Shown: positions 17,681 through 64,000, counted from the first letter of the stretch. The stretch is 64,000 nucleotides of DNA from Candidatus Omnitrophota bacterium (GCA_903836515.1 CAILQW010000003.1:33529-97528); one strand, 5' to 3'. Notes: generated from the letters alone by a model not told the origin. A program made the numbers and translations.

Positions 17681-17698
17681 CTGGGCCCGCCAGGACTC
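17681..17698 (-). repeat. 18-nt direct-repeat copy of the tRNA-Ile2 3' end
   Basis: ctgggcccgccaggactc is identical to 17818-17835 (tRNA-Ile2 T-loop 3' half, acceptor 3' strand and discriminator). Confidence 0.65.
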
Positions 17699-17788: not shown

Positions 17789-17818
17789 GTCCTGGCAAAA
17801 ACTTATTTAAAAAATTAC

Positions 17819-37148: not shown

Positions 37149-37169
37149 AAAACCCGCTTTCGTCATAAT

Positions 37170-38387: not shown

Positions 38388-38501
38388 AACAGCCTCCGGG
38401 AACAATAACGGTTAAAAAACTTTTTTCCATCCCGGCCCTGATCCAGGCGCGGTAGGAAGGAATTTAAAATTTTAAGTATTATATATAGGGAAACAGGTTT
38501 G

Positions 38502-43586: not shown

Positions 43587-44575
43587 TACACTTTCTTTTC
43601 AACAACCCGCCATACATCATCCAAAGAAACAGCATCCAGGCAGTCCATTTTAACGGCCTGACGGCACCTGTCAAAACAGGGACGATGCGCGCAGGGACGG
43701 ATCACCACGGCACCATGATCCCGCGGGCCGATGAAGGAGGGGTCTCCCGGCCCGAACACAGCCACCAGGGGCACGCCCAGACCATGGGCCATATGCATCA
43801 CGCCCGTGTCATTACAAACCAAAAGATCCAGTTGCGCTACAACAGCCATCAGCGCACGCAGAGAACCTTTTAGATATGGAATCCCCAGGCGCAAGGCCGC
43901 ATCTTCCCCGCAGCCATCCGGATCGACAAGCATAAGCACATCCGCGCCGGCGTGCTGGCGCAGCCTTGATGCCAGCGCTTCAAAACGCGCCAGGGACCAG
44001 CGCCGCACAGGTTGCGCCGCGCCGGGATGGATCCCGACAAGCTTCCCGGCCCGGCGCGGGAATTTATCCCCGATGAATTCCCTGGCCTGGGCCGATTCTT
44101 CCTGTCCGATCACCAGATGCGGCTGCAAGCCCGCATCCCGGGCATCCAGCATGTTCAATAAACGGCCCCAATCATCCAGTCGATGCCTCCCGGCCCTGGG
44201 ACCGCCGGGGCGCCGCACATACCGCCGGGGTGCGATCAGCCAGGACAAGACATCGTTGCGCGGATCTCCGCGGGCATCGAGAACAAGATCGAATTTCTCC
44301 CGGCGCAGCGTCCTGACCATCGCCAGCAGCCCCTTGCCATCCCAGCGCCACAGGCAATACTTCCGCTGAAATGCCGTCCATGGGAATTTGTAAACAAAAA
44401 CCCGCGACACATCCTTGTCGTGTAAAAGGACCTGCCGCCCGTGCTCCTGCGCCAGAATGCATATCTCCGCCACAGGAAATTTCTCCCGAAGAGGCTTAAG
44501 CACCGCGGACATCATCACCACGTCCCCGATGCCCCATAACTCGACCACAAGGATCTTGCGCACGGGTTCATTCAT
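43586..44575 (-). CDS. glycosyltransferase family 9 (heptosyltransferase-like)
   Basis: Motifs ILVVELWGIGDVVMMSAVLKPL, VGIHPGAA, NDTGVMHMAHGLGVPLVAVFGP. Confidence 0.8.
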   Translation of the reverse strand: MNEPVRKILVVELWGIGDVVMMSAVLKPLREKFPVAEICILAQEHGRQVLLHDKDVSRVFVYKFPWTAFQRKYCLWRWDGKGLLAMVRTLRREKFDLVLDARGDPRNDVLSWLIAPRRYVRRPGGPRAGRHRLDDWGRLLNMLDARDAGLQPHLVIGQEESAQAREFIGDKFPRRAGKLVGIHPGAAQPVRRWSLARFEALASRLRQHAGADVLMLVDPDGCGEDAALRLGIPYLKGSLRALMAVVAQLDLLVCNDTGVMHMAHGLGVPLVAVFGPGDPSFIGPRDHGAVVIRPCAHRPCFDRCRQAVKMDCLDAVSLDDVWRVVEKKV

Positions 44576-45954
44576 GCCCCACGCTCCTCAGGGACAGCCT
44601 TCTGCCCATAAACAAGCACCAGCACAAACCCCAGCAATACCCAGAGAAAAATATTTGTCGGCGGGGAATCGATGACATCAAAGGATTGGGCCATGGCATG
44701 CCACGCGACAAGACTGCCCAATGCTCCGGCAAGATACACGCGCCGGGAGGCATGCCCGGATCGCTCGAGGGCTTTCACCCCCTGCACGAACACAAAGCCG
44801 TTGATCCATAAAAATAATGCCAGGCCCAAAAAGCCCATCTTGTAAAAAATCGTCATGAACTCATTGTGCGGCGGCGTTATCCCAGAATTTTCAGCAAAGC
44901 CGCGCACCGGGGACGTCCTCCCGATAGCCGAAGGATCATAGATCAGGACATCCCGGAACCCGTGCCCCCAGATGAGCGAAGTTTTTCCGGCCTGCCATGT
45001 CGCTTTCCATATCTTCAGCCGCCAGGTAATATTGCCATACGCCACGCGCCGCTCCGGCGGGATTTGTTCCGGCGGATGGTTTGACGTCAGAACCTCATCA
45101 AGGAACAACACCGTCCCGGCCGCGCGCTCGATATAAGCCGGTTTTTGGGCTCTGCCGGACTCCCAAAAACTCTGGGCCAGCAAAAAACCAAGGATAAAAA
45201 TAAAAATGACAACGAGCGCCGTCAATAATTTTTTTATTCTCCCTCTGAAAACAAAGAAAAAGAAAACCACAAGGCAGATCACCTCAACCCAGGCGGTGCG
45301 AAGGCCGCTCATGACGATCAAGGCTATGTTGAGCCCGCAAAGGGCGCCTAACGCCCATCGGGAAAAGCCCTTGGCTTTTTCCATCCCGTAGGACAGAAAA
45401 AATGCGATGGCGATCCCGCTATAGAGCAGGATATTGAACGTACGCATCTGGGCAAAATGAAAGGGCAACCCGTCCCAGGGCACGGGCCAATGATTGATAA
45501 TGATCGCCCCGTTAACCAAGGCGATCAGATTGCACACGCCTAATATCACACAGAATATCCTGCCGTTAAAATGACGTTCCACGACAACCCATATCAAAGG
45601 CAGAAACAATAAATACGTCGAAAGGACAACCCCCCGCAGCGCAAACTCACTGCGGTAAACCAGAACCCCCAGGATCAGATAAAACATCCCGAAAAAAAAC
45701 ATCGCCAGAAATGGCCCGCGGAACATCATCGGGACCCTTGGCTCCATAGCCTTGATCCCCTCCCAGGCCAGCGGCAAGGCGAAAAGAATAAAAACATCCG
45801 TGATATACAACGGCACACCAAAGATCACGGCTAATTTTTGAAGGGAAAACGCGCGCGCAAAACAGAACGTGCCGCACAGGATGATCATCAAGGCGATGAA
45901 CACCGATCGGCGATACCCTGCCCCCAGCCTGCCGGAACATATTGTGGAAATCAT
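44572..45954 (-). CDS. second O-antigen ligase/polymerase-like membrane protein
   Basis: Polytopic, Wzy_C-type loop MSGLRTAWVEVICLVVFFFFVF. 460 aa. Confidence 0.65.
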   Translation of the reverse strand: MISTICSGRLGAGYRRSVFIALMIILCGTFCFARAFSLQKLAVIFGVPLYITDVFILFALPLAWEGIKAMEPRVPMMFRGPFLAMFFFGMFYLILGVLVYRSEFALRGVVLSTYLLFLPLIWVVVERHFNGRIFCVILGVCNLIALVNGAIIINHWPVPWDGLPFHFAQMRTFNILLYSGIAIAFFLSYGMEKAKGFSRWALGALCGLNIALIVMSGLRTAWVEVICLVVFFFFVFRGRIKKLLTALVVIFIFILGFLLAQSFWESGRAQKPAYIERAAGTVLFLDEVLTSNHPPEQIPPERRVAYGNITWRLKIWKATWQAGKTSLIWGHGFRDVLIYDPSAIGRTSPVRGFAENSGITPPHNEFMTIFYKMGFLGLALFLWINGFVFVQGVKALERSGHASRRVYLAGALGSLVAWHAMAQSFDVIDSPPTNIFLWVLLGFVLVLVYGQKAVPEERGA

Positions 45955-49776: not shown

Positions 49777-50664
49777 TCATCGTGCCGTGCTGTTAACATT
49801 CCCCTGCGTCAGAAAATGCACCATCCCGAGCGCCATCGTGCCCAGGCCATCCCAAACCTTCCCATGCCAAAAAATCTCGCGGCCATGCCTGAACTCACAC
49901 CTGGCGGCGGCGCCACGATTCATCGCCACCCCGCGGATGCTCAACGGTAACACCTTGCCGGCGCGGCGGATCAGCTCGAATTCCTCGGCCACAACCGCCA
50001 GGCGATACGTTCGGGAGCGCGTCATGCTGCCCTCTAAAAAACGCAGGGCGCCTAGGTACTCCGGGATCATGGCGATCTCCCCTCGTCCTGCCAACGCCAG
50101 AATCAGGGCAAAATCCTGGGCATACTGATACGGCTGCGCATATCCCCCGGCGTCCTCGGCCGCTTTTCTGCGGTACATGACCGATGAATGCACGATCACA
50201 TTCCTGGCGCCCAGCTGATCGTAGAGCCCATCAGGCGGCGGCGTCCACGCGCCTGCCGGTTCCCCGTGGCGGTCAATATAACGCACCCAGCTTCCCACCA
50301 GCACGACCCGGGAATGTGCATCCATAAACTCGGTTTCCCGCCGGAGGCGGTCAGGATAAGCGATGTCATCGGCATCCAGGACCGCAATATATTCACCGCG
50401 CGCATGCGCCAAAGCATGGCGCAACGCTGGCGTCCGCCCGGTGTTCCGTGCAAAAGTAAACACATGCAGCCGGGGATCCGTATACCCGGACAGCATCGCC
50501 GCGGAAGCATCCGTTGAACCATCATCGACAATGACCAGCTCCCAGTCACCGAAAGTCTGCGCCAGGATGCTCTCGATGCTCTCCCGTAAGAACGGAGCCG
50601 CATTATAAACAGTCATGAGAACCGATACGCGGGGGGCAGCAGCCAGGTGCATGTCAGCAACCAT
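49777..50664 (-). CDS. glycosyltransferase family 2
   Basis: Motifs VSVLMTVYNAAPFLRESIESILAQTF..LVIVDDGSTD, LDADDIAY. Confidence 0.85.
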   Translation of the reverse strand: MVADMHLAAAPRVSVLMTVYNAAPFLRESIESILAQTFGDWELVIVDDGSTDASAAMLSGYTDPRLHVFTFARNTGRTPALRHALAHARGEYIAVLDADDIAYPDRLRRETEFMDAHSRVVLVGSWVRYIDRHGEPAGAWTPPPDGLYDQLGARNVIVHSSVMYRRKAAEDAGGYAQPYQYAQDFALILALAGRGEIAMIPEYLGALRFLEGSMTRSRTYRLAVVAEEFELIRRAGKVLPLSIRGVAMNRGAAARCEFRHGREIFWHGKVWDGLGTMALGMVHFLTQGNVNSTAR

Positions 50665-52474
50665 ATGTTAAACGCCCGCCCCTTTCAACGCCCTTGGCAC
50701 CATGGTCCCAAAAAGCTTTAAAGTCCGGATGGCTGAAATACGCCGCCACATCCCAGTCCACAACGCCCGTGTCGTTAACGGCGTCGATGAATCTTTCGGA
50801 AAAATCATCCTCATACGCCAGGAAGATATGGTCTTTGATAAAATATTCGACTTCCCACGATACTGATTCAGGCACATACACCAGTGTTTTAACCCCCATG
50901 GCCAAGGACTCAAAGACAACGGTAGATGCCGCTGTGACCAACAAAGAACAATCGGCAAGCAACAAAGGAATATTATCATGAACAAACACACAATTTTTAT
51001 ATTTCAGGAACAATGGCGTCAGCACGGCATCCGCCGGCAAATATGGATGCGCCTTGATCTTCACACAAAAACCATCCAGCTTGCCCTCACGCGCCAGCGC
51101 GAGCAAGCGGACCTGCAGCGAAAAAGCGATCAGCGGATCCAAGGGCAAGGCCACGACAACAGATTGAGGGTGCCTTATCGCCGGCCTGATGCCCTTGGAC
51201 CCGATCAAATGGGTATAACGTATCGCGCCGGCGACTTCGACAGGAATATTCGGATAAAAAGGACGAAGGAAATCTGCCCACCGCTGGCCTGCCGTTAATA
51301 TGACATCAGGGCACGGCGCGGAACGCTCAAGGGCCGATGTCCGGTAATCCAGCCAATTATACGGGATTGCGGCATGGGCATAACCGATTTTCCGGATTTT
51401 CTCGGGCAGCGCCAACATCAGCATTTTCTCCCAGGGCTGATTCTCAAACGGATAGATCACGGCCGCCGTATCCTTTAACCGCTCAAACAGGCCGCGATAA
51501 CCATGGAATAACAACAAATTTCCCATGTAAACATTTTCGCAGTTTTCCCGCCAGGCCTCGTTGATCACCAGCTCCCGCAAAACCACGCCATCCTCACGGC
51601 CATCCTCAAGGATCGTGATGGTGAATCGACGGCCAAGAACCCGCCAAAGATCCCTGAACGATACGGAACGCAACGGATAAATGATCGACCTGAAACGCCG
51701 CCGCAAGGCTCCCATGTGCCGCAACGGGATCATGAGCGGGGCCATTCTCCGCACAACCAGATCTTGCTTTTTGAACCACGCTTCCAGGCCGCCAAAGTAA
51801 GGATCGTGGAATCCCGCGAGATCATTGAATGTCCGTTGATCGATCCAGCTATGGATCACCACATCACACGCACCTGAGGGCGCCGGCGTTAACAGCCGGC
51901 CCAACAACCAGAAAAAACCATACCTCACAAGCTGAATATATCCTTGCAGGCATCGCCTCACCCGCGACATACAAAAGGTACGGGCTGGGGCAACATCCAT
52001 ATTTTTGCCGCCGACCTTCCCCATGACCTTTAAAAAATCATGGTCATCTGTAACAACAAGGATGTCGTCCTTTTCACGGGAAGCCAATGCCTCCAGCAGC
52101 TTGAAATAAACATAATGGTCAAAGATCAACGTCTGACTGTTGGATTTCGAGGCCATCCGCGAAGAATACCACAGGACTTTATCCTGTTGGAGCTCCGCCA
52201 TGGCCCCGATATAATCGACAAATCTGTCCCGCACAGCCGCGGTGACCTCTTCGATCATCCTGCCGATAAAAATACGTTTCTCATCCGGCAAATAACCTGA
52301 GGCCGATGTTAACCCCTTGTAACTGCCGATATACAGCCAGGCCGATCGACAACGGTCTTTTAATCCTGGTAACGCCTGTGTTGAAACGACGCGGATCATG
52401 AACCATGCCCCCTGGAATACGGTGTATCGTTCAAGAACTGGCCAACAAAGAAAAATCCCGCACAACATCCACAT
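50654..52474 (-). CDS. large hypothetical protein, possibly GT-B-like surface carbohydrate biosynthesis protein
   Basis: No recognised catalytic motif. The C-terminal half has an alternating beta-alpha pattern. Alternative start MIRVVSTQ at 52399 with an AGGGGG RBS. Confidence 0.55.
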   Translation of the reverse strand: MWMLCGIFLCWPVLERYTVFQGAWFMIRVVSTQALPGLKDRCRSAWLYIGSYKGLTSASGYLPDEKRIFIGRMIEEVTAAVRDRFVDYIGAMAELQQDKVLWYSSRMASKSNSQTLIFDHYVYFKLLEALASREKDDILVVTDDHDFLKVMGKVGGKNMDVAPARTFCMSRVRRCLQGYIQLVRYGFFWLLGRLLTPAPSGACDVVIHSWIDQRTFNDLAGFHDPYFGGLEAWFKKQDLVVRRMAPLMIPLRHMGALRRRFRSIIYPLRSVSFRDLWRVLGRRFTITILEDGREDGVVLRELVINEAWRENCENVYMGNLLLFHGYRGLFERLKDTAAVIYPFENQPWEKMLMLALPEKIRKIGYAHAAIPYNWLDYRTSALERSAPCPDVILTAGQRWADFLRPFYPNIPVEVAGAIRYTHLIGSKGIRPAIRHPQSVVVALPLDPLIAFSLQVRLLALAREGKLDGFCVKIKAHPYLPADAVLTPLFLKYKNCVFVHDNIPLLLADCSLLVTAASTVVFESLAMGVKTLVYVPESVSWEVEYFIKDHIFLAYEDDFSERFIDAVNDTGVVDWDVAAYFSHPDFKAFWDHGAKGVERGGRLTYGC

Positions 52475-53087
52475 GGGTGCCGCTGGTGATGCCGCCGGGA
52501 TCCGTGACCTCGGAATACCGGCTCATAAAAACAAAATCAAAACCGAAGAGGCCGGCGACATGCTGGTCGTAACGGCTGTCCCCGAAAAAAACCGCAGGTG
52601 TCAGGATGCGGCCACCCGCCACCTCGGCGGAAAGGATTTCTTCCTTGGAGCGCGGGCTGCCATAAATGGCGTGAAAATACTGTGCCAGCCCCCGGCGCTT
52701 GAAAACATCCCGCAACTCCGTCTCCAGGCCCCCTGAAACAACGATCTTCACGCTTTCAGGCGGCAATCGGCGCAGAAAATCTTCGCAGGCATGTGTTAAC
52801 GGGCACGCCAGAAGGGCCTCGAACACAAGCCGCCCATACTGCGCCACGGATCCCGCGACCTGGTCCTGCGGGTCCTTTTGCCCCAGAATCTCGTTATAAA
52901 GATATTCGATCTTGCGGAAACGGGAAATCCCGCCGTTATGTTGATGGTATGCCACCAGCCGTTCTGCCGCGGCTTTGCCGTAAGCAATGGCCAGGTCATA
53001 AAAAGCTTTTGTCTTGATCGCGTTGGAATCCAGGATCACCCCGTCGCAATCAAACAAAAAAGTCCTGTACGCGGAAAGCTCAAGCAT
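52431..53087 (-). CDS. HAD-superfamily phosphatase
   Basis: Start MLELSAYRTFLFDCDGVILDS (DxDGV motif I). Later motifs SGG and GDSRYD. The ORF-track N-terminal extension to 53288 would overlap the upstream gene. Confidence 0.7.
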   Translation of the reverse strand: MLELSAYRTFLFDCDGVILDSNAIKTKAFYDLAIAYGKAAAERLVAYHQHNGGISRFRKIEYLYNEILGQKDPQDQVAGSVAQYGRLVFEALLACPLTHACEDFLRRLPPESVKIVVSGGLETELRDVFKRRGLAQYFHAIYGSPRSKEEILSAEVAGGRILTPAVFFGDSRYDQHVAGLFGFDFVFMSRYSEVTDPGGITSGTHVDVVRDFSLLASS

Positions 53088-53820
53088 CCCTTGCCTTTCG
53101 CAGCACCGCGTCAACCGCAGCGACATCTCCCGGGACATCCACGGCCAGAGACCCGCCGGCCACTTCACACATACGGACAACAATCCCCAGGTCCAGGAAT
53201 CTGAGGATCTCGATGTCCTCGATCTTCTCCAGGGCGCTCTTGCGGCCGAAGCCTTTAAATCTTTGCAACTGCTCACGGTCAAAGGCATAAATACAGACCT
53301 GCTTATAGCGCGTTATGCCATCGTTAACACCCTTTTTGCTCCCCGGAACGGGCAAGCGTGACATGTAAACGAGTTCGCCGCGTTCATTGAAAACAACCTT
53401 GGGAAGGTTCACACTGGCCACATCTTCCCCGGGCAGTACCCGGGCCATGGCGTTAACCACCACCCCGGGAAAATTTTTCTTTTCAGCGGCCACTTTAAGG
53501 ATGCTCGCCGGATCCAGGAGCGGCTCATCGCCCTGGATATCCAGATAAATATCCGCCGGGATCTGCTCTGCCGCGCACGCCACCCGGTCCGTACCGGTCA
53601 AAAGGTCTCCGGGGGTCATCACCACCTCAAACCCGTGGCTCTGGACCGCCTCACGGATGCGTTCATCATCTGTCGCCACATAAACATTTTCTTTCCCCAG
53701 CGCGCGCTCCACCGCCTGAGCCACCCATATGATCATCGGGTGGCCGGCAAGATTTACCAGCGGCTTCCCGGGGAACCTTGAGGAGGCATAACGCGCAGGA
53801 ATAACACCGACCGTCCTCAT
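53080..53820 (-). CDS. acylneuraminate/3-deoxy-octulosonate-type cytidylyltransferase (KdsB/NeuA family)
   Basis: N-terminus MRTVGVIPARYASSRFPGKPL, a KdsB/CMP-sugar synthetase hallmark. The ATG overlaps the upstream stop (TGATG) and has an AAGGA RBS. Confidence 0.85.
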   Translation of the reverse strand: MRTVGVIPARYASSRFPGKPLVNLAGHPMIIWVAQAVERALGKENVYVATDDERIREAVQSHGFEVVMTPGDLLTGTDRVACAAEQIPADIYLDIQGDEPLLDPASILKVAAEKKNFPGVVVNAMARVLPGEDVASVNLPKVVFNERGELVYMSRLPVPGSKKGVNDGITRYKQVCIYAFDREQLQRFKGFGRKSALEKIEDIEILRFLDLGIVVRMCEVAGGSLAVDVPGDVAAVDAVLRKARDA

Positions 53821-55412
53821 CAAGAACCATCCTTGAAGAGCGAAGGTGTCAAAAATTCAACCTGGATCTTCGGTGCCAGCTGCCGGAGCGCCTTGGCAAT
53901 GGCGCCGTTCTGCTCCGCCAGCGCCTTCTTATCGATCACACGCCCCATTTCCGGATAACTGTAATTTTCATGCGCGGACATGCTGTAACCATCCAGGCCC
54001 GCCACCGCCACACGAGCCACCCGCAGCTGCACCAGAATATTCAGCAAAAGGACCGCCACATTGTCGCATCGGTCTGCTGTTTTATTGACCAACGCATCGT
54101 AATCGACGACAAAACAGCCCTGGTGCCGGGGCTGAAGCTCAATGTTGCTCGTAACAATCAGGGCTGCCTTATCCAGCTGCTCATGAAACTCGTCGTACCG
54201 TTTTTGATTCGAAAAAAAGAACAAACCGGCCGGGATCAACGCAGGGACATGATTGAGGGCAACCGGAAGTTCTCCCTTCCTGCGGATACGCTCCAGGATA
54301 TTACCGGCCTCGGCCTTGATGCTTGGCCCTGAAGCGATCGCCACGATCTCCCTGGAAACAAGCATCTCATCCGGACTTTTTCCTGTGGCCCGTTTGACCG
54401 ATCGGGAGGCGATATACAGCTCTTCGATGCATTCCTGGCTGAAAATACGGCGCCGCGCGTCAGGGATGGAGGCGAGGACTTTCTCAATATCCACCACCGA
54501 AAGCGTCTTCTTGTCCAGCAGGTAACTGGCATAATTGGGATGACAGTTCAGCGTCGCCGAGAGAAAGTAAGCGATCGAATAACCCCACGCATTTTCCCGG
54601 TAAATGGCCTCAATGGGATTATCGATACATTCCAGGAGCGGCACAATGTCATAATTTTTGGCATGCTTGACATTCAGATAATGCATCAAAAGCTCGGTAT
54701 TCAAATTCCCCGCGCCACGCCCCATGCCAAAGATCGACGCATCAATGAGAAGTTCACGCGCAGGCCCGACCGCCTCGATCATGTCAATGGCATTGGCATA
54801 GGCTAACTGCAAATTATTATGGGCATGATACCCCAGCGCCAGGTTCGGGCGCAAATATTGATCCAGATTTTTCCAGAGTTGAACGAGTTCCTTGGTGAAC
54901 AAAAGCCCGAAACTGTCAACAATGTAGACAGCCACGACATCGATCGGATTGAACGTATCGGCCAACGCCTTGAGGTCAGCATCCGTGTAGGCGGTTGTCA
55001 CCATCGGCTGAACGTAGACATGATATCCTTTGGCCGCCATCTTGCGCGCCTCTTCAGCCGCCTGAGCCATCTGCTCTTTATGAAACGCGAGCCGGATACC
55101 GGAAATATGCTGTCCCTGGTAAGGCGGCAGATCACCCGCCGAGAATTTGCCAAGGTCAACCATCAGGCAAAATCGGGCCTTGACGCCTGCAGGGGCAAGA
55201 TCGCCAAGGATCTTCTCCGGCGCTTGAAGATCACAAAAAATCGAACTGTCCGCGCCGCCCTGGCTTTTGCGGTCCAGATACCCCAGCTCAATGATATCAA
55301 CACCACTGGTCATGAGCGCCTTGACAATATTCTGCCAGCTCTTGCGGTCAAATTGCCAGTCATTGACATAACCGCCATCCCGCAGTGTGCAATCAAGAAT
55401 TTTCACCATCAT
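53820..55412 (-). CDS. HMGL-like (DRE-TIM metallolyase) aldolase/synthase domain fused to a C-terminal domain of unknown function
   Basis: Motifs ILDCTLRDGGY, YHAHNNLQLAYANAI and GMGRGAGN match the IPMS/4-hydroxy-2-oxovalerate aldolase family. About 200 C-terminal residues have no recognisable motif. Start MMVKIL with an AAAGG RBS. Confidence 0.75.
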   Translation of the reverse strand: MMVKILDCTLRDGGYVNDWQFDRKSWQNIVKALMTSGVDIIELGYLDRKSQGGADSSIFCDLQAPEKILGDLAPAGVKARFCLMVDLGKFSAGDLPPYQGQHISGIRLAFHKEQMAQAAEEARKMAAKGYHVYVQPMVTTAYTDADLKALADTFNPIDVVAVYIVDSFGLLFTKELVQLWKNLDQYLRPNLALGYHAHNNLQLAYANAIDMIEAVGPARELLIDASIFGMGRGAGNLNTELLMHYLNVKHAKNYDIVPLLECIDNPIEAIYRENAWGYSIAYFLSATLNCHPNYASYLLDKKTLSVVDIEKVLASIPDARRRIFSQECIEELYIASRSVKRATGKSPDEMLVSREIVAIASGPSIKAEAGNILERIRRKGELPVALNHVPALIPAGLFFFSNQKRYDEFHEQLDKAALIVTSNIELQPRHQGCFVVDYDALVNKTADRCDNVAVLLLNILVQLRVARVAVAGLDGYSMSAHENYSYPEMGRVIDKKALAEQNGAIAKALRQLAPKIQVEFLTPSLFKDGS

Positions 55413-56521
55413 CAACCTTTCTTCATCTGATGCCGATTCCGGCTCATCCGCCCCATGGCACGCTCGAATTCTTTCATGAACTGCATCATGACCGGCTTGG
55501 GCCCCAGGGTAAGCCGGACACAATTTTCCACAGGAAATTCGAATGACCCCCTGATATAGATCTTCTTTTTCTTGAGCGCCTCGAGCAATTCATGCGTTTC
55601 TTGCGTGTCACGTAAAAAGATCAACATCCCGTTGGAGAAATTACCGCCGGACCAGCGGATACCCAGCTGCGAGAGCCTGTGCTGGACATAATCTTTCCCC
55701 TGCTTGAGGCCTTTAACATATTGCCGCATCAGCCCGGCGTGCTTCAACATGTATTCCCCCACAGCCATGGAAAGCGCATTACATTCGACAAGCGAGCGTG
55801 TTTTGGAAAGATACTCAATATTATCCTTCGAGCTGATCATATACCCCAAACGCACACCCGCCAGGCCAAACGCCTTGGAAAATGTCTGAAAAATAATGAT
55901 ATTGTCATACGCATGAAGCAACGGCAGGGCGCTCTCTGCCCCGAAAAAAGCATACGCTTCATCCACCACAAGAAAAGCATCGCACGCCCGGCATTTATCG
56001 GCGATCCGGCGGATATCGGCAAGGCCGAAGACACTCTCAATGGGCAGATTGGGATTGGGCAGACAAACCAGGACCGTACGCTCGTTGATGGCATCACAGA
56101 TAGACTGCACGTCCAGCGCAAGGTCCTTGTTGAAGGCCACTTCCCGGATCTTGGCCTGATAAATCTGCGCATAGATCCTGTACATGGGATAGGTGGGCTG
56201 AAGCATGACCACCTCATCCCCGGGTGAAACAAGCGTCTCAAAAATAATGCGGATCCCTTCGGTGATCGCATTGGTCACATAAAGCTGTTCCACAGGAACT
56301 TTCACCCATCGGGACAAAGCCGCATAAAAACGGTCCGTATCCGGATAGGCGTTCAAAAGATATGCGGGCAAAAGTTTGTGCAGGTCCTGCATGACCTTTT
56401 TGGGAAATTCGGTAACGCGTTCATTCCTGTCCAGGCGCAGGCCTTCCTTCAAATTCCGCCCGACGGATGTCCTTTTTCTCTCGATAGCGGCCAAATGGCC
56501 CTTGAATCTTCGTTTGATCAT
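55412..56521 (-). CDS. class I/II PLP-dependent enzyme, HisC/CobD-like (aminotransferase or decarboxylase)
   Basis: Motifs LRLDRNE (cf. HisC LSSNENP) and FQTFSKAFGLAGVRLGY (PLP-lysine region). 369 aa. Confidence 0.8.
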   Translation of the reverse strand: MIKRRFKGHLAAIERKRTSVGRNLKEGLRLDRNERVTEFPKKVMQDLHKLLPAYLLNAYPDTDRFYAALSRWVKVPVEQLYVTNAITEGIRIIFETLVSPGDEVVMLQPTYPMYRIYAQIYQAKIREVAFNKDLALDVQSICDAINERTVLVCLPNPNLPIESVFGLADIRRIADKCRACDAFLVVDEAYAFFGAESALPLLHAYDNIIIFQTFSKAFGLAGVRLGYMISSKDNIEYLSKTRSLVECNALSMAVGEYMLKHAGLMRQYVKGLKQGKDYVQHRLSQLGIRWSGGNFSNGMLIFLRDTQETHELLEALKKKKIYIRGSFEFPVENCVRLTLGPKPVMMQFMKEFERAMGRMSRNRHQMKKG

Positions 56522-57513
56522 GTCTTCCCTTGCCCCTCTCTTTTAATCTTGGGTTCTTTGGCCAGCGCAGGATCCAGGGGTTCTGCCGGCATATCGCAAT
56601 TGTTCAGGCAATTATGGCATACCGTCCCCAAAAGATTGCCCGCCGCATGCCTCCGGCGCAAGGCAACATACGCCTCATGATGCCAGGCATCCTTGATATT
56701 CGTTTTATGCAGATCCGCGACGACCAGGTAATTCTGATAATCGACAACACACGCCGAAAGATAGCCCTCGGGAGTCACCGTGCATCGGGAAAAAACATCC
56801 GGACACTTGCCGGAGTGATGTCCCTGCCGCAAGCTTCCCAGGAGGTTGCCCTTGTCGATCTTTTCTGTCTTGTTATTCTCGAGCATGTTCCCGCCCTGAT
56901 TACTGCACCCCCGGCCATCGATCTCGTCCACAAAATCATTGAGCAATCCCGCCAATAACGGGAATTCACCCTCTGTCAACGTCGTCGGAACCATGCTCAC
57001 ATAGATACGGAAAGACAGGCCGCTTTTGATCCTGTACCCATGCAGCCATTGAATATTCTCGATCACCTGGTCAAAACGATCCACCCCGTGCACCTTCTTG
57101 TATGACGCGCGCGTGCCGGCATTCACGGAAAACTTGATGCTGTCCAGGCCGGCTTCCAGGACCGGCATGACCCGCTGCGGTGTCGCGGCGATGCCATTGG
57201 AATTCAGAAAAACATATTCATACCCTATGGCTTTGGCTTCCCGGACGAATGCCGCGAGGTCCTGACGCAAAAAAGGCTCTCCGGTCGCAAAGAACGCCAC
57301 CTCCCGTGCCCCGCAGGCAAAGAAATCCCTCAACAGCTTAAACCCGAACGCTTGGTCAAGGTATGCGGGCTTTCCCACCTTGGAATTGCTGCAAAAGAAA
57401 CATTTGGAATTGCAGGTGTTATTCAGGTCAAAGAATACTTCCCGCGGGAAAGGCGGATAAAGGTTATTGAAATCGACATCCATCCTTTTTGATTTCTTGG
57501 CCGACAAACTCAT
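56518..57513 (-). CDS. radical SAM protein with C-terminal SPASM-like cysteine cluster
   Basis: Radical SAM motif CNSKCFFCS (CxxxCxxC). C-terminal cysteines CPDVFSRC...C...CHNCLNNC. Confidence 0.8.
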   Translation of the reverse strand: MSLSAKKSKRMDVDFNNLYPPFPREVFFDLNNTCNSKCFFCSNSKVGKPAYLDQAFGFKLLRDFFACGAREVAFFATGEPFLRQDLAAFVREAKAIGYEYVFLNSNGIAATPQRVMPVLEAGLDSIKFSVNAGTRASYKKVHGVDRFDQVIENIQWLHGYRIKSGLSFRIYVSMVPTTLTEGEFPLLAGLLNDFVDEIDGRGCSNQGGNMLENNKTEKIDKGNLLGSLRQGHHSGKCPDVFSRCTVTPEGYLSACVVDYQNYLVVADLHKTNIKDAWHHEAYVALRRRHAAGNLLGTVCHNCLNNCDMPAEPLDPALAKEPKIKREGQGKT

Positions 57514-57523
57514 CTGAAGTCCT

Positions 57524-58495
57524 TTATTGATGTTTTACGGATGACGGCCGCTTGATCGTCAGGATGATCTGGTTGCCGGAAGATCTTTTTTCAATGGCCT
57601 CCCGATAATGGCGGTCAAACGCCCGGATCAGCCCGGCGAGTTCGCGCCCCAGCCCTGTCGCAGACGCCGCCAATCGCTGGGCCGCATCCAGGGCATAACG
57701 ATCTCCGCCCACAATCCCGGTGGTCCTGGGTTTTCCGTCAAGATGCCATAACAGGTGATTCAAGGGGCCATACCCCTGGCGCGTTGTCACCTGAAAAGCG
57801 ACCCCGTGAGAGCGTTTGAATATTTTCCCCAATTGAGCCGCCGCCTGTACGGAATAATAGGCGCTGGTCATTTTTTCATGGAAAAAATCCTTGTAGGCCT
57901 TGATGTTCCAGACATCGTTTAGCACATCGTGATAATTCGGGGTGATGATATAGATCTGCCCGCCGGGTTCCAGCAGCTCAATTAACCGCTGGCCATACGT
58001 TACCGGATCCTTGATATACTGGATCACATAAAAAAGGAATATCTTCCGGAAACGCAAGCCGTCCTGCTCTACCGCATCCAATGTTTGATGGCACGGGATC
58101 CCCAGCTGCCGCCGTACAAATCCCGCCCGCACGGGATTGATCTCAAGCCCTACAGGCTTTATCCCGGCATCCTGCAATGCCTTCAAGAAATAACCCCACG
58201 AACAGCCGGCCTCCAGCACACGCTTGCCCCGGTCGGCGGGACCGGTATATTCTTTCCGGTACTCCAAGGCCTGCCTGAATCCGTTATCAAAATCAGTCTT
58301 GATATCCGGCACATCTAAAGCGGCGGTACGCAGCCGCGCCTGCTCGAATTTATCCTCCACGATCAATCGTGTATGATCCGTGTTGAGAAAGGCAAAGTCG
58401 CACGACGGGCAGTGAAAAAGCCGCTCTGTTTCCCCCCCGCGGGCCTTGACAGGCCGCGCCCTGGGAACAAGCTTTCCGCAAATACTACATGTCAT
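57524..58495 (-). CDS. class I SAM-dependent methyltransferase with N-terminal zinc ribbon (sugar C-methyltransferase-like architecture)
   Basis: Start MTCSICGKL...CPSCDF (Cys4 ribbon) with a GGAGG RBS. SAM motif VLEAGCSWGYF. The ORF track extends to 58642. Confidence 0.75.
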   Translation of the reverse strand: MTCSICGKLVPRARPVKARGGETERLFHCPSCDFAFLNTDHTRLIVEDKFEQARLRTAALDVPDIKTDFDNGFRQALEYRKEYTGPADRGKRVLEAGCSWGYFLKALQDAGIKPVGLEINPVRAGFVRRQLGIPCHQTLDAVEQDGLRFRKIFLFYVIQYIKDPVTYGQRLIELLEPGGQIYIITPNYHDVLNDVWNIKAYKDFFHEKMTSAYYSVQAAAQLGKIFKRSHGVAFQVTTRQGYGPLNHLLWHLDGKPRTTGIVGGDRYALDAAQRLAASATGLGRELAGLIRAFDRHYREAIEKRSSGNQIILTIKRPSSVKHQ

Positions 58496-59570
58496 CCCTG
58501 CTCCTCCCATCAAGGGGCCTGGGCCGGTCCAATTCAGCCGCGAGCCTTTCCGCCAACGCATTCTCGGTTCTTTCCCCGATAAAATGAGCCGCATCAAAAA
58601 AGTCATCCATGAAATAACACCCGGCAATATCCTTCGCTTCAAGGAAACTTATGCCGCCATAAGATTCCTTCCTGAAAAATTCCCGCCATTGCGCGTTAAG
58701 CTGCTGCAACAAAGGATCCGTATCGATCATCCGCTGATAATCAGGGGTCTTCACCGTTTCAAACAAAACCGTCCGTATCTTGCGTGCACGCAGCTCCTGG
58801 AACATCCTGATATAAACACGCTGGGCTTGAGCTGAAAGTCTTTTGTTTTTTAAGAACGTCGCTTCACTGTCTTCCCTGTCGAAATACGCCTGCGCATCAC
58901 GGTTCTTGACAAAATCATACGCACCCGCCTTGATCTGCCGGCGTATCTCCTGATACTCCTTGTTCCCGTATAGATCGTTGAGGCGCGGGATTTCCTGATG
59001 AAGCGCCTGTTTGATGCCATAAAGAGCCATGGCCCGGAAACGGCTTTTAGCGGCGTCGCACATAAACCACGTTATGGCCTTGGCCTGACGCAGCCTGTTC
59101 ATGATACCATGCGCCGGAGATAATTCCTGCTTCAATCCCCATAAATCACCGATCCTGGGATCTGTGAATGGAACAGACTGGACATACCTCGCGTAGGAAA
59201 AGACTTTGGTCATGGCCATGGATTCGAAACTGACACCCAGCACAACACGCTTGATGTCCCCATAAAGCAGGGCATGGTTGAGCTGCAGGGCCGCATCCAC
59301 AGGATCCACCCCGGACAAGCTCCAGTTAAAAGGGGCCCAGTGCCTTTTCAGGAAAGGGGTCAATGCCATCCTTTGAGCACGGGAATCCCCGCAAATGACC
59401 GTATCAACCCGCGGCTTTCTCATAAAATCGAAATGTTTTAACTGCGGCTCCGCCAGCCAGTCCATTCCCAGAACCTGCTCATTGGAAATGAAAGGGCCTG
59501 CGAGGTTGATGCCCGCGACCAGCACGATGGGCGTCACAACAAATAATATAAGGCCGATTTTCTTCATCAT
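58485..59570 (-). CDS. SGNH/DltD-like extracytoplasmic acyl-transfer protein (AlgX/DltD analog)
   Basis: Start MMKKIGLILFVV (signal anchor) with an AAGGT RBS. Motif VICGDSRAQ (GDS) and C-terminal DFFDAAHF (DxxH). Directly downstream of an MBOAT gene. Confidence 0.55.
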   Translation of the reverse strand: MMKKIGLILFVVTPIVLVAGINLAGPFISNEQVLGMDWLAEPQLKHFDFMRKPRVDTVICGDSRAQRMALTPFLKRHWAPFNWSLSGVDPVDAALQLNHALLYGDIKRVVLGVSFESMAMTKVFSYARYVQSVPFTDPRIGDLWGLKQELSPAHGIMNRLRQAKAITWFMCDAAKSRFRAMALYGIKQALHQEIPRLNDLYGNKEYQEIRRQIKAGAYDFVKNRDAQAYFDREDSEATFLKNKRLSAQAQRVYIRMFQELRARKIRTVLFETVKTPDYQRMIDTDPLLQQLNAQWREFFRKESYGGISFLEAKDIAGCYFMDDFFDAAHFIGERTENALAERLAAELDRPRPLDGRSRDDM

Positions 59571-59712
59571 AAAGAAATACCTTAGAACTGCTGGTATGCA
59601 ATAAATTGAGATTTGGTCTCCATCCCCAAGAGGCACAACCAATAAATGACCAGCTGCAGCACAAGGACAACGAGCAGTACCTTTTTATTATCCGCAAGGA
59701 CCTTGACGATCT

Positions 59713-60924
59713 TCATACGGAGCGCCCTCCGATCACCGCCATCACCTGATACAGGTCATGGAACGAATACTGGAAGACCAGGAACGTGGCCATCACATAA
59801 CATTGGCACACCACGATCGCAGCGGCCCTGACCGCACCATTATTCTTATAGGCTTTCAGGGCTGGCTTGGGCAGCAGCGCCTTCAATAATTCACCATAAA
59901 GAAGGGTGATGACCACTCCCAACCCCTGAAGCACCCCGAAAAGGACAAAACGGATCTCATTGCCATGCCATATCCCCATTAAAAAGAAGGAAATAAAAGT
60001 AACGCCAACCAGGGACAATAACGGATTAAAACGCCTTGATGCGGCCACCATCATCGGGTAATACAGATAATCACGGAAGAATTCCGAGAGAGAAATATGC
60101 CACCGGTTCCAGAAATCGACCATGTTCCTGGCGATAAAAGGAACCCTGAAATTTTCAGGGACCCTGAACCCGACAGCCCTTCCCACGCCGATCACCGTAT
60201 CGCAATACCCGGAAAAGTTCAGATACAAATAGAGCGGAAAAGATATGAAAAAAAGCGCGAACGCGGCCGCCGACGGTGCGGCGGTAAATGTCGTTATCAC
60301 CGCATACTGCTGAAAGAAAGGAGCGATGACCGCCATTTTGATCAGCCCCCAGACGATCCGGTTGAACGCTTTCAATGAATCCTGGAGCGGCACGTCTTCT
60401 GTTTCGAAACGCCGCATGTGTTCGATAAAGTCATCGTAGCGCTGGATGGGCCCGGCCAGGAACGTCCAGAACGCCAGATTATAGTTAAGGTAATCCAGGG
60501 GGCGGACCGATTTGATCATGCCATCGCGCACATGCACGCTCAGATGGATCTGGCGGAACAAGATGAACGAATACCCCAGCACCGACCACCAAATCGCAAA
60601 GGCATGCCCCCCCAGGAAACTCCCCGTGATCCAGTGATATTCTTTAACCGTCACGAACCACACCAGGTCAAGGATCAGCCAAAGGATGAAAACGAGCCTC
60701 TTCGCCTCCACGCGCAGCATGAGCTGCAACGACAGGTAATGGCTCAGCATCCACGCAAGCAAGATGAGACCTGAAAACAGCCGCGGCTGAGGGATGACCA
60801 GCAGGATAAATATGATATTAAGGGCCAGAAAAACATGGCGTTTCACCCGGTTCAGCGACGCCATCCCCAGCAGCAGCAAGGCCGACGAGAGAAAAATATA
60901 CATTCCCGGTGATTGGAACGTCAT
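59713..60924 (-). CDS. MBOAT-family membrane O-acyltransferase (DltB/AlgI-like)
   Basis: Polytopic. Conserved histidine region FWNRWHISLSEFFRDYLYYP. Start MTFQSPG at 60924 overlaps the ACP stop (ATGA) and has a GGAGA RBS. Confidence 0.85.
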   Translation of the reverse strand: MTFQSPGMYIFLSSALLLLGMASLNRVKRHVFLALNIIFILLVIPQPRLFSGLILLAWMLSHYLSLQLMLRVEAKRLVFILWLILDLVWFVTVKEYHWITGSFLGGHAFAIWWSVLGYSFILFRQIHLSVHVRDGMIKSVRPLDYLNYNLAFWTFLAGPIQRYDDFIEHMRRFETEDVPLQDSLKAFNRIVWGLIKMAVIAPFFQQYAVITTFTAAPSAAAFALFFISFPLYLYLNFSGYCDTVIGVGRAVGFRVPENFRVPFIARNMVDFWNRWHISLSEFFRDYLYYPMMVAASRRFNPLLSLVGVTFISFFLMGIWHGNEIRFVLFGVLQGLGVVITLLYGELLKALLPKPALKAYKNNGAVRAAAIVVCQCYVMATFLVFQYSFHDLYQVMAVIGGRSV

Positions 60925-61187
60925 GCGCCGTGATCTCCGCATTTTTGCTGGATCATCCTGGCGAAACTTCCGACATTCTGACCCGGCTTTTTCGTTTCAG
61001 CGATCTCCGCGGTCGTAAAACGGATCTTGAATGATTTTTCCACGGCCAGCATCAGGGTGATATGCCCCAGCGAATCCCATTCATCAATCGCCTCTGCCGT
61101 GGTTGCCGGGCCGATCACCAGGCTGTCATCATCAAAAACCTCGCCAAAAACAACGTTCAACTGCCTGATCACATCCTGCATATCCAT
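60921..61187 (-). CDS. acyl/peptidyl carrier protein (DltC-like)
   Basis: 88 aa. Phosphopantetheine-attachment motif DEWDSLGHITLM. Confidence 0.8.
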   Translation of the reverse strand: MDMQDVIRQLNVVFGEVFDDDSLVIGPATTAEAIDEWDSLGHITLMLAVEKSFKIRFTTAEIAETKKPGQNVGSFARMIQQKCGDHGA

Positions 61188-61199
61188 CGCGTTAACCTT

Positions 61200-63074
61200 T
61201 CATGTCTTGGACGTTCCAATGTAGGTCTCATACTTGCCGGGCAGCCTGTCCAGGTCCAGCTGCCAGCGCATCGTCCCGCCGGCAACCGGTGCGATGGGGG
61301 TAAATCCAAGCCTCGGGTAAAGGTCAGCCACCAGACCGTTCTTGGCTGTGGGAATATAAACCCCGATAATACGCCTGATCCCCCGCTCCAACCCGAGGTC
61401 GATCATGGTGCGGCAAATATACTCTTCCATCCCGCGGGCCAGCACACGGCAGCTCATGCACCATGTATCCACAACATACTCCAGGTCACCGGCCCTCTTG
61501 AGGATCACCACGGCGATCAGGCCATTGTCGCCGAACTTGTCCTTTAAAGAAAAATGCCGGCAGATCACATCCTGGTCCCCCGCCAGTTCCTTGACCACAC
61601 TTTCGCCATAGCGTGTCGTTGTCAGGTGGAACTGATTGCTCTTATTGATCAACTGCACCACCCGCGGCAAATGAAAATCATCAACAATGCCGACGGAAGC
61701 TTCCATCTCCAGGCTTTGCAGATAACCTGCCAGGTCACATGAATCCTGCCTGGCACTGTCCCTGGCCATATTGCTGCGGTAATACTCCGTCCGCTTCCCA
61801 TCTTCAGCCGATATCCCGATGGTCTCAAAATAGCGGCCATGATCCAGCGTTTGCCTGTAGCGCGAAGGGTCATCGGGCATCACCGGCACAACCACCTGGG
61901 GCAGAAACCTTGCCACCAGCTCACGCTCGGCGGGATTGTCATCCACGAAAACGATCGCATCAAGGCCGATATTCAGCTGGTGCGCGATATCTTTGATGTT
62001 GTCCGCCTTATTGCCCCAGTTGGCTTTAAACACACTGATATCCTCAAGTTTGAGCCGCATGTCAGGGTGCTTCAGAAAAGGCTCCCGGGCTTTCTCTTCG
62101 TCGTTCTTGCTGCAAACAGCAAGGATGACCCCCCGTTCTTTCAGCTCAAGGATATAACGTTGAAAGTCGACAAAAGCCTCGCCGACCGGCCCGTCCCCCA
62201 GGGCGATCCCCCCCAGGCCGTCATCTGCGATCACCCCGCCCCAAAGGGTGTTGTCAAGATCAAGGACCAGGCATTTTTGGGCCTGCCCTTTGATCGCCGC
62301 GATCAGCCGTGCGGCCTGATGCGCCACCTCGCCCACCGCATCCAGGCTGAAAGGGATCTTGGAGTTGTACCAATGCGTGAATTCAAACCATTTCTCTTTG
62401 CCAAAAAATGCGGAAATATACTCCAGATCAAAGATCATGACACCGTCTTTCAGCGCCTCCGTGAGCCTGGAATTATACCGCCTGAGGATGCTGGAATGAC
62501 TCCAGGAAGCCACACTGTCATAATTCCCCAGAGTCCGGTACGGCGGCAGGTCCGCATTGTTCTGGATAATATACGCCCGGCAGCGCTCTTGCAGGACACC
62601 CCACAACGAAGAATACCCGCGGATGACCTCATCGACATCCTCACAGGTTTCCTCCCGAGAGCGCCCCCATTGCCGGGGGATCTGCACATCCCTGAAGGTC
62701 GTGAAAATCCATACAATATCCGGATCGAACGCATACAATTTACTGTCCGGGGCCAGGATCGTCTGCGCGATCGTGTCATAGGCGGCCTCGAAAAATACGG
62801 CGTTGAATCCCGCCAGGGCAAGCCAGAACCCAAGCACATCGCGCAGGAATTTATCCGTTGAGGAGGCAAGGACCGCAACCCTGATCGGAGTCATCGCCTT
62901 GAATACACCCTGATCCAGGGTTGAAAGAATCCTGGCATAACGCGCCTGAAGGACCGCATTGTCCTCCCGTTGCGCAAGGCGGACAAGCGCCTGAAATGCC
63001 TCGGCATGGCGGCCTTCTTTACGCAAAGCGGCCACATGGGCGATGCCCGACAGCTTGGCCTCATGGTCGCTCAT
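61200..63074 (-). CDS. FkbH-like (HAD-IIIC) domain protein fused to a C-terminal GNAT acyltransferase domain
   Basis: HAD-IIIC core LVLDLDNTLWGGVIADDG...VCSKNDE...VFVDDNP. The C-terminal ~150 aa are GNAT-like (GLIAVVIL...RVLARGMEE). Confidence 0.75.
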   Translation of the reverse strand: MSDHEAKLSGIAHVAALRKEGRHAEAFQALVRLAQREDNAVLQARYARILSTLDQGVFKAMTPIRVAVLASSTDKFLRDVLGFWLALAGFNAVFFEAAYDTIAQTILAPDSKLYAFDPDIVWIFTTFRDVQIPRQWGRSREETCEDVDEVIRGYSSLWGVLQERCRAYIIQNNADLPPYRTLGNYDSVASWSHSSILRRYNSRLTEALKDGVMIFDLEYISAFFGKEKWFEFTHWYNSKIPFSLDAVGEVAHQAARLIAAIKGQAQKCLVLDLDNTLWGGVIADDGLGGIALGDGPVGEAFVDFQRYILELKERGVILAVCSKNDEEKAREPFLKHPDMRLKLEDISVFKANWGNKADNIKDIAHQLNIGLDAIVFVDDNPAERELVARFLPQVVVPVMPDDPSRYRQTLDHGRYFETIGISAEDGKRTEYYRSNMARDSARQDSCDLAGYLQSLEMEASVGIVDDFHLPRVVQLINKSNQFHLTTTRYGESVVKELAGDQDVICRHFSLKDKFGDNGLIAVVILKRAGDLEYVVDTWCMSCRVLARGMEEYICRTMIDLGLERGIRRIIGVYIPTAKNGLVADLYPRLGFTPIAPVAGGTMRWQLDLDRLPGKYETYIGTSKT

Positions 63075-64000
63075 GGCTGAACACTCCTTACGATACGGTT
63101 GATCTGGGCAAAAGCCGGGTGGACCGGATCAAACTTCCCGTCCAGCTGATCGCCGATGATGGTGTTGATCGCCGTCTGGATACCTTTGACCTGGGCCATC
63201 GAATAGCCCTGATCGTTCAAATAGGCGACATACCACATGCTCGTATCCGGATCGACGGCAGTCGCCCCCTTGATCTGCCGGAACATGGACAGTTTCAGGT
63301 CTGAGGCCTGACGGTAATTCATCGTGGCATGTTCCCAGTTGGCACCAAGCCCGGTCAGTTGATAGCGTTGCCGGTTTTCATGAACAGGGGCATGTTTCAT
63401 ATAATAGAATTCTTTAAGCGTGTAAAAATCGATCCCGTTACTCTCGATGAAATCAATATTTTCCATGGCCGTCTTTTCCGTCTCACCCGGAAAACCGATG
63501 ACAAAACCCGCCAGCATGGGGATGCCGTACTTCTTCAACAGGCGGACCCCCTTTTCAAACTCATGGCGGGTCGCCTTTTTATTCATGTTGCCAAGGATCG
63601 TGTCATTGGCAGACTCAATGCCCATATACACCATGGCGCATCCGGAATCTTTCATAAGCCGGACGATCTCTTCATCAACGAATTGCACCCGCAAAAACGA
63701 ATACCACGCAACCTTCATTTTGGAGAGGGTGGCGCAGATCTTCTTGAACCTTTCTTTGGGCACATTGAACGTGTCATCAATGAAGATGATCCTGTCGGCG
63801 GATGACTGCTTGAGCATCCGCTTAAGATCCTCTTCAAACATGCCCAGTCCGGAGGGATGAAAACCCTTCGTGGTCACAGGATACGAACAAAAAGCACAGC
63901 TGAACGGGCAACCGGATGAAACGCGCAGCTGGATGGTGTGATTGATAAAAGACAGGTTCAGCTTGTCCCAGTTGACCGCAACACCCTCCAGCACCGGCAC
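63071..64000 (-). CDS. radical SAM enzyme (B12-binding radical SAM-like), 5'-truncated by the window edge
   Basis: Motif CPFSCAFCS (CxxxCxxC) and Fe-S/TIM half-barrel features. The N-terminus lies beyond 64000. Confidence 0.7.
   Translation of the reverse strand: MPVLEGVAVNWDKLNLSFINHTIQLRVSSGCPFSCAFCSYPVTTKGFHPSGLGMFEEDLKRMLKQSSADRIIFIDDTFNVPKERFKKICATLSKMKVAWYSFLRVQFVDEEIVRLMKDSGCAMVYMGIESANDTILGNMNKKATRHEFEKGVRLLKKYGIPMLAGFVIGFPGETEKTAMENIDFIESNGIDFYTLKEFYYMKHAPVHENRQRYQLTGLGANWEHATMNYRQASDLKLSMFRQIKGATAVDPDTSMWYVAYLNDQGYSMAQVKGIQTAINTIIGDQLDGKFDPVHPAFAQINRIVRSVQP

Follow-up and report, generated by a model that had tools for sequence, protein, structure and literature searches.

A Putative FkbH-Primed, Carrier-Protein-Dependent Acyl Relay of Dlt-Like Architecture in a Surface-Glycan Locus of a Candidatus Omnitrophota Bacterium

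Introduction

The closest described counterpart of the system discussed here is the Dlt pathway of Firmicutes, in which the adenylating enzyme DltA is the loader and D-alanine is the cargo. The small protein DltX ends in the motif FxYxxF, and its tyrosine carries D-alanine from DltB, a membrane-bound O-acyltransferase (MBOAT), to DltD (PMC12148441). The tyrosine of this motif is likewise the acyl shuttle in PatA, where, as in other acetyl-CoA-dependent MBOATs, the motif is fused to the MBOAT's C-terminus (PMC12148441). According to the same paper, published in 2025, the non-Dlt MBOAT/SGNH pathways have neither carrier proteins nor DltX-like microproteins (PMC12148441). A module that differs from this statement was found at positions 58485 to 64000 of a 64,000-nucleotide stretch of DNA from a Candidatus Omnitrophota bacterium (GCA_903836515.1, CAILQW010000003.1:33529-97528), which is referred to below as the window. 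Its components include a carrier protein as well as a DltX-like microprotein, its loader is a different one, an FkbH-type protein, and its host belongs to a diderm candidate phylum. With moderate confidence, the module is interpreted as a carrier-protein-dependent transmembrane acyl relay that would be built like DltX-B-C-D and primed by FkbH instead of DltA. Confidence is lower as to which acyl group is carried and what accepts it.

Dedicated carrier proteins also deliver small acyl or aminoacyl groups to molecules of the outer surface in the Bordetella dra locus and in the Vibrio AlmEFG system. Both rely on adenylating loaders and handle amino acids, and AlmG is not an MBOAT.

In polyketide pathways, FkbH enzymes form a glyceryl thioester of the acyl carrier protein (ACP), glyceryl-S-ACP, from 1,3-bisphosphoglycerate (PMC7489565), and an FkbH-like loading domain that converts 1,3-bisphosphoglycerate into D-lactyl-ACP has been reported (PMC7901079). 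A literature search returned no description tying FkbH or HAD-IIIC proteins to MBOATs or to the acylation of O-antigen, lipopolysaccharide (LPS) or capsule, the primary DltX paper (PMC10664464) being outside the reach of that search.

Organization of the Module, Its Loader and Its Carrier Protein

Every gene of the region is encoded on the minus strand. The order of transcription is MaoC dehydratase, B12-binding radical SAM enzyme, FkbH, ACP, MBOAT, microprotein and SGNH protein, and the last five of these, which make up the proposed relay, are all present, intact and linked. The first-pass annotation of the window had reported four adjacent genes with overlapping stop and start codons. The tight packing stands, with three ATGA overlaps (radical SAM/FkbH, ACP/MBOAT and MBOAT/microprotein), but a fifth gene, encoding a microprotein of 44 aa, had been missed. 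The remaining junctions of the gene string are gaps of 12–14 nt or an 11-nt overlap. No convincing intergenic terminator was found in the module by a consensus scan, and the tight spacing together with the lack of a strong terminator is consistent with a single operon. An Rfam scan gave no RNA element within the module. The many open reading frames on the plus strand that overlap the module genes were treated as antisense artefacts of the GC-rich coding strand.

The loader (61200..63074, minus strand, 624 aa) belongs to the FkbH family, as it scores 292.3 bits against TIGR01686, twice the cut-off of 146.65 bits. It also scores 65.8 bits against the HAD-IIIC family TIGR01681 (cut-off 35.75 bits) and 57.5 bits against the Pfam domain FkbH_N, and the structure solved for the N-terminal part of Bacteroides fragilis BF1531 (PDB 3slr) matches it with an E-value of 7e-69. 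The protein is tripartite: FkbH_N forms its N-terminal part, a HAD-IIIC phosphatase domain follows, and the C-terminal part is a GNAT-like domain for acyl transfer. The HAD motifs (DLDNT, SKN, Lys and DDNP) and the cysteine of the SCR motif in the C-terminal domain were invariant in all 15 FkbH sequences of an alignment that included the zwittermicin-cluster FkbH from a B. thuringiensis plasmid. The annotation as an FkbH-like HAD-IIIC protein therefore holds on both profile scores. Its fusion to a GNAT domain was also proposed, and this label is plausible but thinly supported: a profile of the C-terminal domain matched only GNAT folds in the PDB, and these weakly (best E 0.002). Polyketide-type FkbH aligns to residues ~240–600 of the window protein only and leaves the N-terminal FkbH_N domain of ~255 aa uncovered. 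This domain is specific to the glycan-associated type of FkbH.

The stand-alone carrier protein (60921..61187, minus strand, 88 aa) gave no significant match in Pfam and NCBIfam searches. It was found to match a solved putative ACP (PDB 2lml, E 3e-13) in which the phosphopantetheine serine, Ser39 of the WDSL motif, is aligned, and this bears out the earlier assignment of an 88-aa carrier protein with the conserved serine context. Its homologues lie between FkbH and MBOAT in six related loci (L085–L087 and L092–L094). In having an FkbH domain that scores over the cut-off, invariant HAD motifs and cysteine, and an adjoining stand-alone ACP, the pair resembles the FkbH/OzmB/ZmaN-type glyceryl-ACP synthases. 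It differs from the polyketide systems in its additional N-terminal domain and, as proposed here, in the fate of the product, which would enter a membrane acyltransferase relay for envelope decoration, whereas theirs goes to a ketosynthase.

The Short MBOAT and Its Partners

The MBOAT (59713..60924, minus strand) is 403 aa long as predicted by gene callers, and its reading frame also opens at 60942, a longer alternative start. It scores 65.9 bits against PF03062 (gathering cut-off 27), and its alignment with the DltB structure 6bug is colinear along almost the full length of the protein (E 7e-31), which confirms the family call made at first pass. The catalytic-site histidines H276 and H320, in the motifs WHG and WNRWH, were invariant in 27 homologues. 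The C-terminus (...IGGRSV) has no tyrosine shuttle motif and no fused FxYxxF tail; as a control, nearly all long MBOATs in a background sample end in F[ILV]Y..F.

Short and long MBOATs were also placed in a neighbour-joining tree, a rough one that carries no support values. In this tree, the short FkbH-associated MBOATs, together with those of L095 and L096, are placed beside Streptococcus DltB and apart from a large AlgI/PatA-like group. Four of the five long FkbH-associated MBOATs fall in the latter group, the fifth, from L006, being placed with the short clade. This distribution suggests that the recruitment of FkbH-ACP to MBOATs took place more than once. The background sample came from a scan of genome contigs with the MBOAT alignment; its generic patterns retrieved mostly AlgI-type MBOATs, so it is usable as background only. 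It contained no close relative among 80 loci, and FkbH and ACP were present in four of the 80.

The gene between the MBOAT and SGNH genes (59582..59716, minus strand) was annotated by gene callers on all source contigs. It encodes the 44-aa microprotein MKIVKVLADNKKVLLVVLVLQLVIYWLCLLGMETKSQFIAYQQF, which has a basic N-terminus, a single transmembrane helix and a short tail with the C-terminal hexapeptide IAYQQF. A counterpart ending in [IV]AYQ[QR]F (VVYQRY in L094) was found in all 13 short-MBOAT loci of this group that were examined, located before the SGNH gene in some loci and after it in others. For comparison, DltX in Streptococcus dlt operons ends in FIYNEF. Relative to the DltX motif FxYxxF, the tyrosine and the terminal phenylalanine are kept and the first phenylalanine is replaced by isoleucine or valine. 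By sequence, IAYQQF is read as a variant of the acyl-shuttle motif of DltX and PatA, and the microprotein is proposed to be the acyl-tyrosine shuttle of the module. Another locus, from an uncultured bacterium (L065, GTDB), has a short MBOAT of 410 aa and two adjoining small open reading frames that end in QFVYVMF. These may represent a further family of separate acyl-shuttle microproteins.

The membrane-anchored SGNH-fold protein (58485..59567, minus strand, 360 aa) could also be read as a 385-aa frame with a TTG start at 59642, which is probably too long. It has an α/β/α fold of the SGNH type, with the block I GDS serine and the block V DxxH motif invariant, and its best structural match is DltD. 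No match above threshold was obtained in Pfam or NCBIfam. Of the original description as an SGNH/DltD-like protein, the GDS and DxxH motifs and the fold were recovered, and membership of the DltD family by sequence was not. The protein is proposed to move the acyl group from the tyrosine of the microprotein to the acceptor. A word-indexed search for its relatives gave nine, as against 58 representatives among 1.84 billion clusters in an exhaustive HMMER search, and because the exhaustive search gave only this number, the family is rare rather than under-sampled. A scan of metagenome contigs with the SGNH alignment returned four loci, three of which were too short to show context.

Conservation in Other Loci

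A comparison of gene neighbourhoods had been recommended in the first-pass annotation as a check on the association of FkbH, ACP and MBOAT. Eight loci with MBOAT homologues (39–64% MBOAT identity) were chosen solely for lying on long contigs, blind to context. In seven of these, FkbH, ACP, MBOAT, an SGNH-like protein and the microprotein occur together in otherwise unrelated surroundings, and the gene order of the cassette is kept across distant relatives. The analogy with Dlt is strengthened because a conserved DltX-like microprotein adjoins the MBOAT and SGNH genes and because the cassette order persists in unrelated contexts. The view of a Dlt-like architecture in which FkbH replaces DltA, as originally advanced, has thus gained from the microprotein and the gene order.

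The eighth locus, L095, is made up of an AlgX-like SGNH protein, a microprotein, an MBOAT, an AMP-binding enzyme and an ACP. Because the same relay is found there with an adenylating enzyme in the place of FkbH, the loader appears to be an exchangeable part, either FkbH or adenylase. In its composition, this locus resembles the carrier-dependent envelope acylation of the dra/AlmEFG kind.

Beside the cassette, three sets of accessory genes recur. A MaoC gene and a B12 radical SAM gene accompany it in the window and in L092; in the latter, the pair lies upstream of FkbH and is separated from it by an insertion sequence (HTH_Tnp_1 and rve integrase, 4623-5773 of L092, between the radical SAM gene and FkbH). 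MaoC is found with a short-chain reductase (SDR) in L086 and L096. A gene of the VOC/glyoxalase family adjoins FkbH-ACP in taxa that are unrelated to one another, on metagenome contigs (L085/L088), in S. meliloti (L099) and on a C. perfringens plasmid (L102), and its product might epimerize or isomerize the acyl group while this is bound to the carrier.

FkbH and ACP are also found next to long MBOATs of the AlgI type, in which the motif is fused to the enzyme; such cases come from Rhodocyclales, Alistipes senegalensis, a Clostridia metagenome-assembled genome, Ferruginibacter and S. meliloti pSymB. In the last of these (CP140921.1, positions 4706-9740 of L099), the cassette consists of an MBOAT ending in FLYQGF, a protein of 409 aa, an ACP and an FkbH-like protein, and the VOC gene lies upstream of it. 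The 409-aa protein is annotated as a 'TonB-dependent receptor' and is probably a mis-annotated MBOAT partner. The FkbH query matched 40 S. meliloti plasmid records, and the MBOAT-partner-ACP-FkbH context was inspected in one of them (CP140921.1).

Proposed Mechanism

The cargo of the relay is probably a three-carbon, glycerate-derived acyl group rather than D-alanine, which would be transferred to a cell-surface polymer. By comparison with the polyketide FkbH enzymes, the FkbH protein would take 1,3-bisphosphoglycerate, its HAD domain would remove the phosphate, and the glyceryl group would be held on the conserved cysteine until the phosphopantetheine arm of the carrier protein (88 aa) receives it. 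At the cytoplasmic face, the carrier protein would then hand the acyl group to the MBOAT, which would transfer it to the tyrosine in the IAYQQF tail of the microprotein at the outer face. Finally, the GDS serine of the SGNH protein would take over the acyl group and esterify a polymer in the periplasm. The latter two steps follow the analogy with Dlt and PatA/PatB. As to the acceptor, the best guess, a speculative one, is the Wzx/Wzy-type O-antigen-like glycan of the locus, possibly a CMP-activated acidic sugar residue in it.

It may be speculated that the carrier-bound C3 unit is tailored before export by the adjacent MaoC dehydratase and B12 radical SAM enzyme. The loading module of bryostatin BryA has the composition DH-KR-FkbH-ACP, and the MaoC, SDR, FkbH and ACP set found in sister loci might, again speculatively, be its parallel, with MaoC and the short-chain reductase as the tailoring partners. 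In the window, the B12 radical SAM enzyme takes the place of the reductase, and the final acyl group may then be a dehydrated and/or methylated C3-C4 unit.

The radical SAM gene (63071..64000, minus strand) precedes the module, as had been noted, and is cut by the edge of the window, which retains the C-terminal 309 aa of a protein of 546 aa in the full contig. It scores 73.7 bits against Pfam Radical_SAM and has the CxxxCxxC motif. The nearest NCBIfam family is TIGR04479 (PhpK family), against which the full-length protein scores 353.5 bits, under the cut-off of 600. It is thus by its score a relative of the PhpK-family P-methyltransferases that falls outside that family, and it is a candidate for the tailoring of the acyl group on the carrier, probably by methylation. 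The MaoC gene lies further upstream, beyond the window, and was seen on the longer source contig L001, a 115-kb metagenome scaffold. Its 157-aa product has an intact hydratase-2 motif, SGDTNPLH.

Comparison with Dlt and Acetyl-CoA-Dependent Systems

The resemblance to Dlt is one of architecture and mechanism, not of orthology. As proposed here, the module would follow the same path as Dlt, from a carrier protein to a short MBOAT without a fused motif, from there to a DltX-like single-pass microprotein with a C-terminal Tyr-x-x-Phe, and then to a putative N-terminally anchored SGNH-fold transferase; the MBOAT of the window and DltB are colinear, and among solved structures the SGNH protein is matched best by DltD. 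The differences lie in the loader (FkbH, with a HAD phosphatase and an acyl-cysteine transferase domain, in place of the adenylating DltA), in the cargo (probably a glycerate-derived C3 acyl group, in place of D-alanine), in the motif ([IV]AYQ[QR]F instead of FxYxxF) and in the host, an LPS-bearing member of Omnitrophota with an O-antigen-type glycan cluster.

Common to the module and to PatA/PatB, AlgI/AlgJ/AlgX and other acetyl-CoA-dependent MBOAT-SGNH systems are the pairing of an MBOAT with an SGNH partner and, on the reading proposed here, the shuttling of an acyl group on a motif tyrosine towards a polymer of the cell surface. The MBOATs of the PatA/PatB and AlgI systems are ~460–520 aa long, carry the motif at their C-terminus and have neither carrier protein nor microprotein (PMC12148441). 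In the window, by contrast, the MBOAT has 403 aa, a separate microprotein bears the motif, and an ACP and a loader are dedicated to the system.

Alternative Explanations

Several observations weigh against the proposed relay or parts of it. The carrier protein shows no significant similarity to S. infantis DltC by BLASTP (E 0.65), and the SGNH protein shows none to DltD by profile comparison. Against TIGR04091 (DltB), the MBOAT reaches 193.5 bits, under the equivalog cut-off of 375; by sequence it is DltB-like and not DltB, and the tree that places it near DltB is an approximate one. The shuttle motif has Ile or Val where DltX and PatA have Phe. Polyketide FkbH lacks the additional N-terminal domain of the glycan-type protein, so the substrate of the latter could differ. 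In Niveispirillum, FkbH-ACP stands beside a cytoplasmic WcbI-type acyltransferase. The acceptor is uncertain, since the sister cassettes of L086, L087 and L093 sit outside obvious glycan loci, with YfhO, RHS, a giant F5/8-type-C protein or unrelated genes as neighbours.

As DltB is the top match of the MBOAT in both NCBIfam and the PDB, the module might be taken for an ordinary dlt operon serving D-alanylation. This is very improbable: the DltB score lies under its cut-off, neither the ACP nor the SGNH protein resembles its Dlt counterpart (DltC and DltD, respectively) by sequence, and the host is a diderm-type member of Omnitrophota with LPS genes. No gene between position 50654 and the upstream end of L001 was found to encode an AMP-binding domain, as in DltA, and a canonical dlt operon was ruled out by this absence. 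According to another explanation, the donor made by FkbH and ACP is used in the cytoplasm, where it would serve, for example, to N- or O-acylate a product of the downstream genes (an amino-ulosonic acid or a nucleotide sugar), and the MBOAT, microprotein and SGNH protein form an independent, neighbouring O-acetylation system that depends on acetyl-CoA. The WcbI-family acyltransferase of Niveispirillum, the C. perfringens plasmid on which the FkbH-ACP pair occurs without any MBOAT, and the aminotransferase downstream in the window would fit such a division. It is nevertheless distinctly unlikely, as the ACP and MBOAT genes share an ATGA overlap and are adjacent in the seven sister loci, and no separate cytoplasmic acyltransferase gene was seen within the module. 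Furthermore, the MBOAT is one of the short, DltB-like enzymes that depend on a microprotein and not one of the AlgI/PatA group, which uses acetyl-CoA, and L095 pairs the same type of MBOAT with an AMP-binding enzyme and an ACP, a classic carrier-dependent arrangement.

The remaining alternatives leave the relay in place and concern its two ends. The glycan-type FkbH may use another acyl phosphate or a different substrate altogether, such that the acyl group is not derived from glycerate. The lack of the FkbH_N domain in polyketide FkbH and the variable attachment of VOC, MaoC, SDR or B12 radical SAM genes point in this direction, but the HAD catalytic motifs and the acyl-holding cysteine are all invariant with the zwittermicin-cluster FkbH, the TIGR01686 score is double its cut-off, and the set of MaoC, SDR, FkbH and ACP is reminiscent of the BryA loading module. 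A cargo of another origin is given only a small chance on these grounds. At the other end, the acyl group could be accepted by a different component of the envelope (peptidoglycan, a lipid or a protein, for example), in which case the position in a glycan locus would be incidental. The neighbours of the L086, L087 and L093 cassettes, which are not glycosyltransferases, would agree with this. On the other hand, the cassettes of the window, L085, L094, L095 and L096 are embedded among sugar-nucleotide, glycosyltransferase and flippase genes, and an acceptor other than the O-antigen-like glycan is held to be unlikely.

Implications

Should the FkbH-primed relay be real, the acyl-tyrosine shuttle mechanism would reach beyond D-alanylation, and the loader, FkbH or adenylase, would prove to be interchangeable. 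It would also tie glycolysis, through 1,3-bisphosphoglycerate, directly to the chemistry of surface glycans and offer a candidate genetic route by which bacterial polysaccharides could come to bear esters of the glycerate or lactate type. As S. meliloti can be cultured and is genetically tractable, its related pSymB cassette opens the idea to testing. A wider proposal is made tentatively, as one that may well not hold: FkbH-primed, carrier-dependent O-acylation with glycerate-derived C3 groups (glyceryl, lactyl or pyruvoyl-like) might be a widespread, unrecognised class of envelope-polymer modification that spans Omnitrophota, Bacteroidota, Clostridia, Planctomycetota-like bacteria and Proteobacteria, including S. 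meliloti pSymB. Separate DltX-like microproteins might then be a general hallmark of carrier-fed MBOATs rather than a peculiarity of Gram-positive D-alanylation.

Genomic Surroundings

The setting of the module was originally given as a surface-glycan operon, and the genes around it agree with this, identifying the locus as a Wzx/Wzy-type surface-glycan cluster. They encode two Wzy_C/O-antigen-ligase-like proteins, GT9 heptosyltransferase, GT2, GT4 and WecG glycosyltransferases, an initiating sugar transferase, a Wzx-like flippase and a WbuX/HisH/WbuZ amidotransferase set (the WbuX/Y/Z set). The two genes of the Wzy_C/O-antigen-ligase family are separate, at 38502-39812 and 44572-45954 on the minus strand.

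Downstream of the SGNH gene, a tight string of genes (52431..58495, minus strand) encodes a Methyltransf_23 methyltransferase, a radical SAM/SPASM protein, a HisC-like aminotransferase, an HMGL-like aldolase, a KdsB-like cytidylyltransferase and a HAD phosphatase. It probably represents a pathway to an unusual, CMP-activated acidic sugar and is a possible source of the acceptor; whether its genes belong to the module is uncertain. Similar kinds of genes also flank the MBOAT modules of L095 and L096. When the string is widened to 50654-58495 (minus strand), a TIGR04326-like protein is added. The HMGL-like aldolase is 530 aa long, and its C-terminal half is without a domain assignment.

Directly downstream of the glycan locus are genes for phosphoglycerate kinase and triose-phosphate isomerase (36393-38405, minus strand). 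Phosphoglycerate kinase interconverts 3-phosphoglycerate and 1,3-bisphosphoglycerate, the latter being the presumed substrate of FkbH. The two genes are probably an ordinary pgk-tpiA pair, and their location near the glycan locus a coincidence.

Elsewhere in the window, an open reading frame of 1098 aa (502-3798, minus strand) gave no Pfam match; the first 4 kb of the window, where it lies, have a GC content of 48–50%, compared with 52–62% in the rest. The LepA protein encoded in the window shares 97% identity with that of a metagenome-assembled genome labelled Candidatus Omnitrophota. A bacterial RNase P class A RNA was found at 15810-16203 (minus strand, 143 bits), and tRNA-Val and tRNA-Met lie within 17538-17892.

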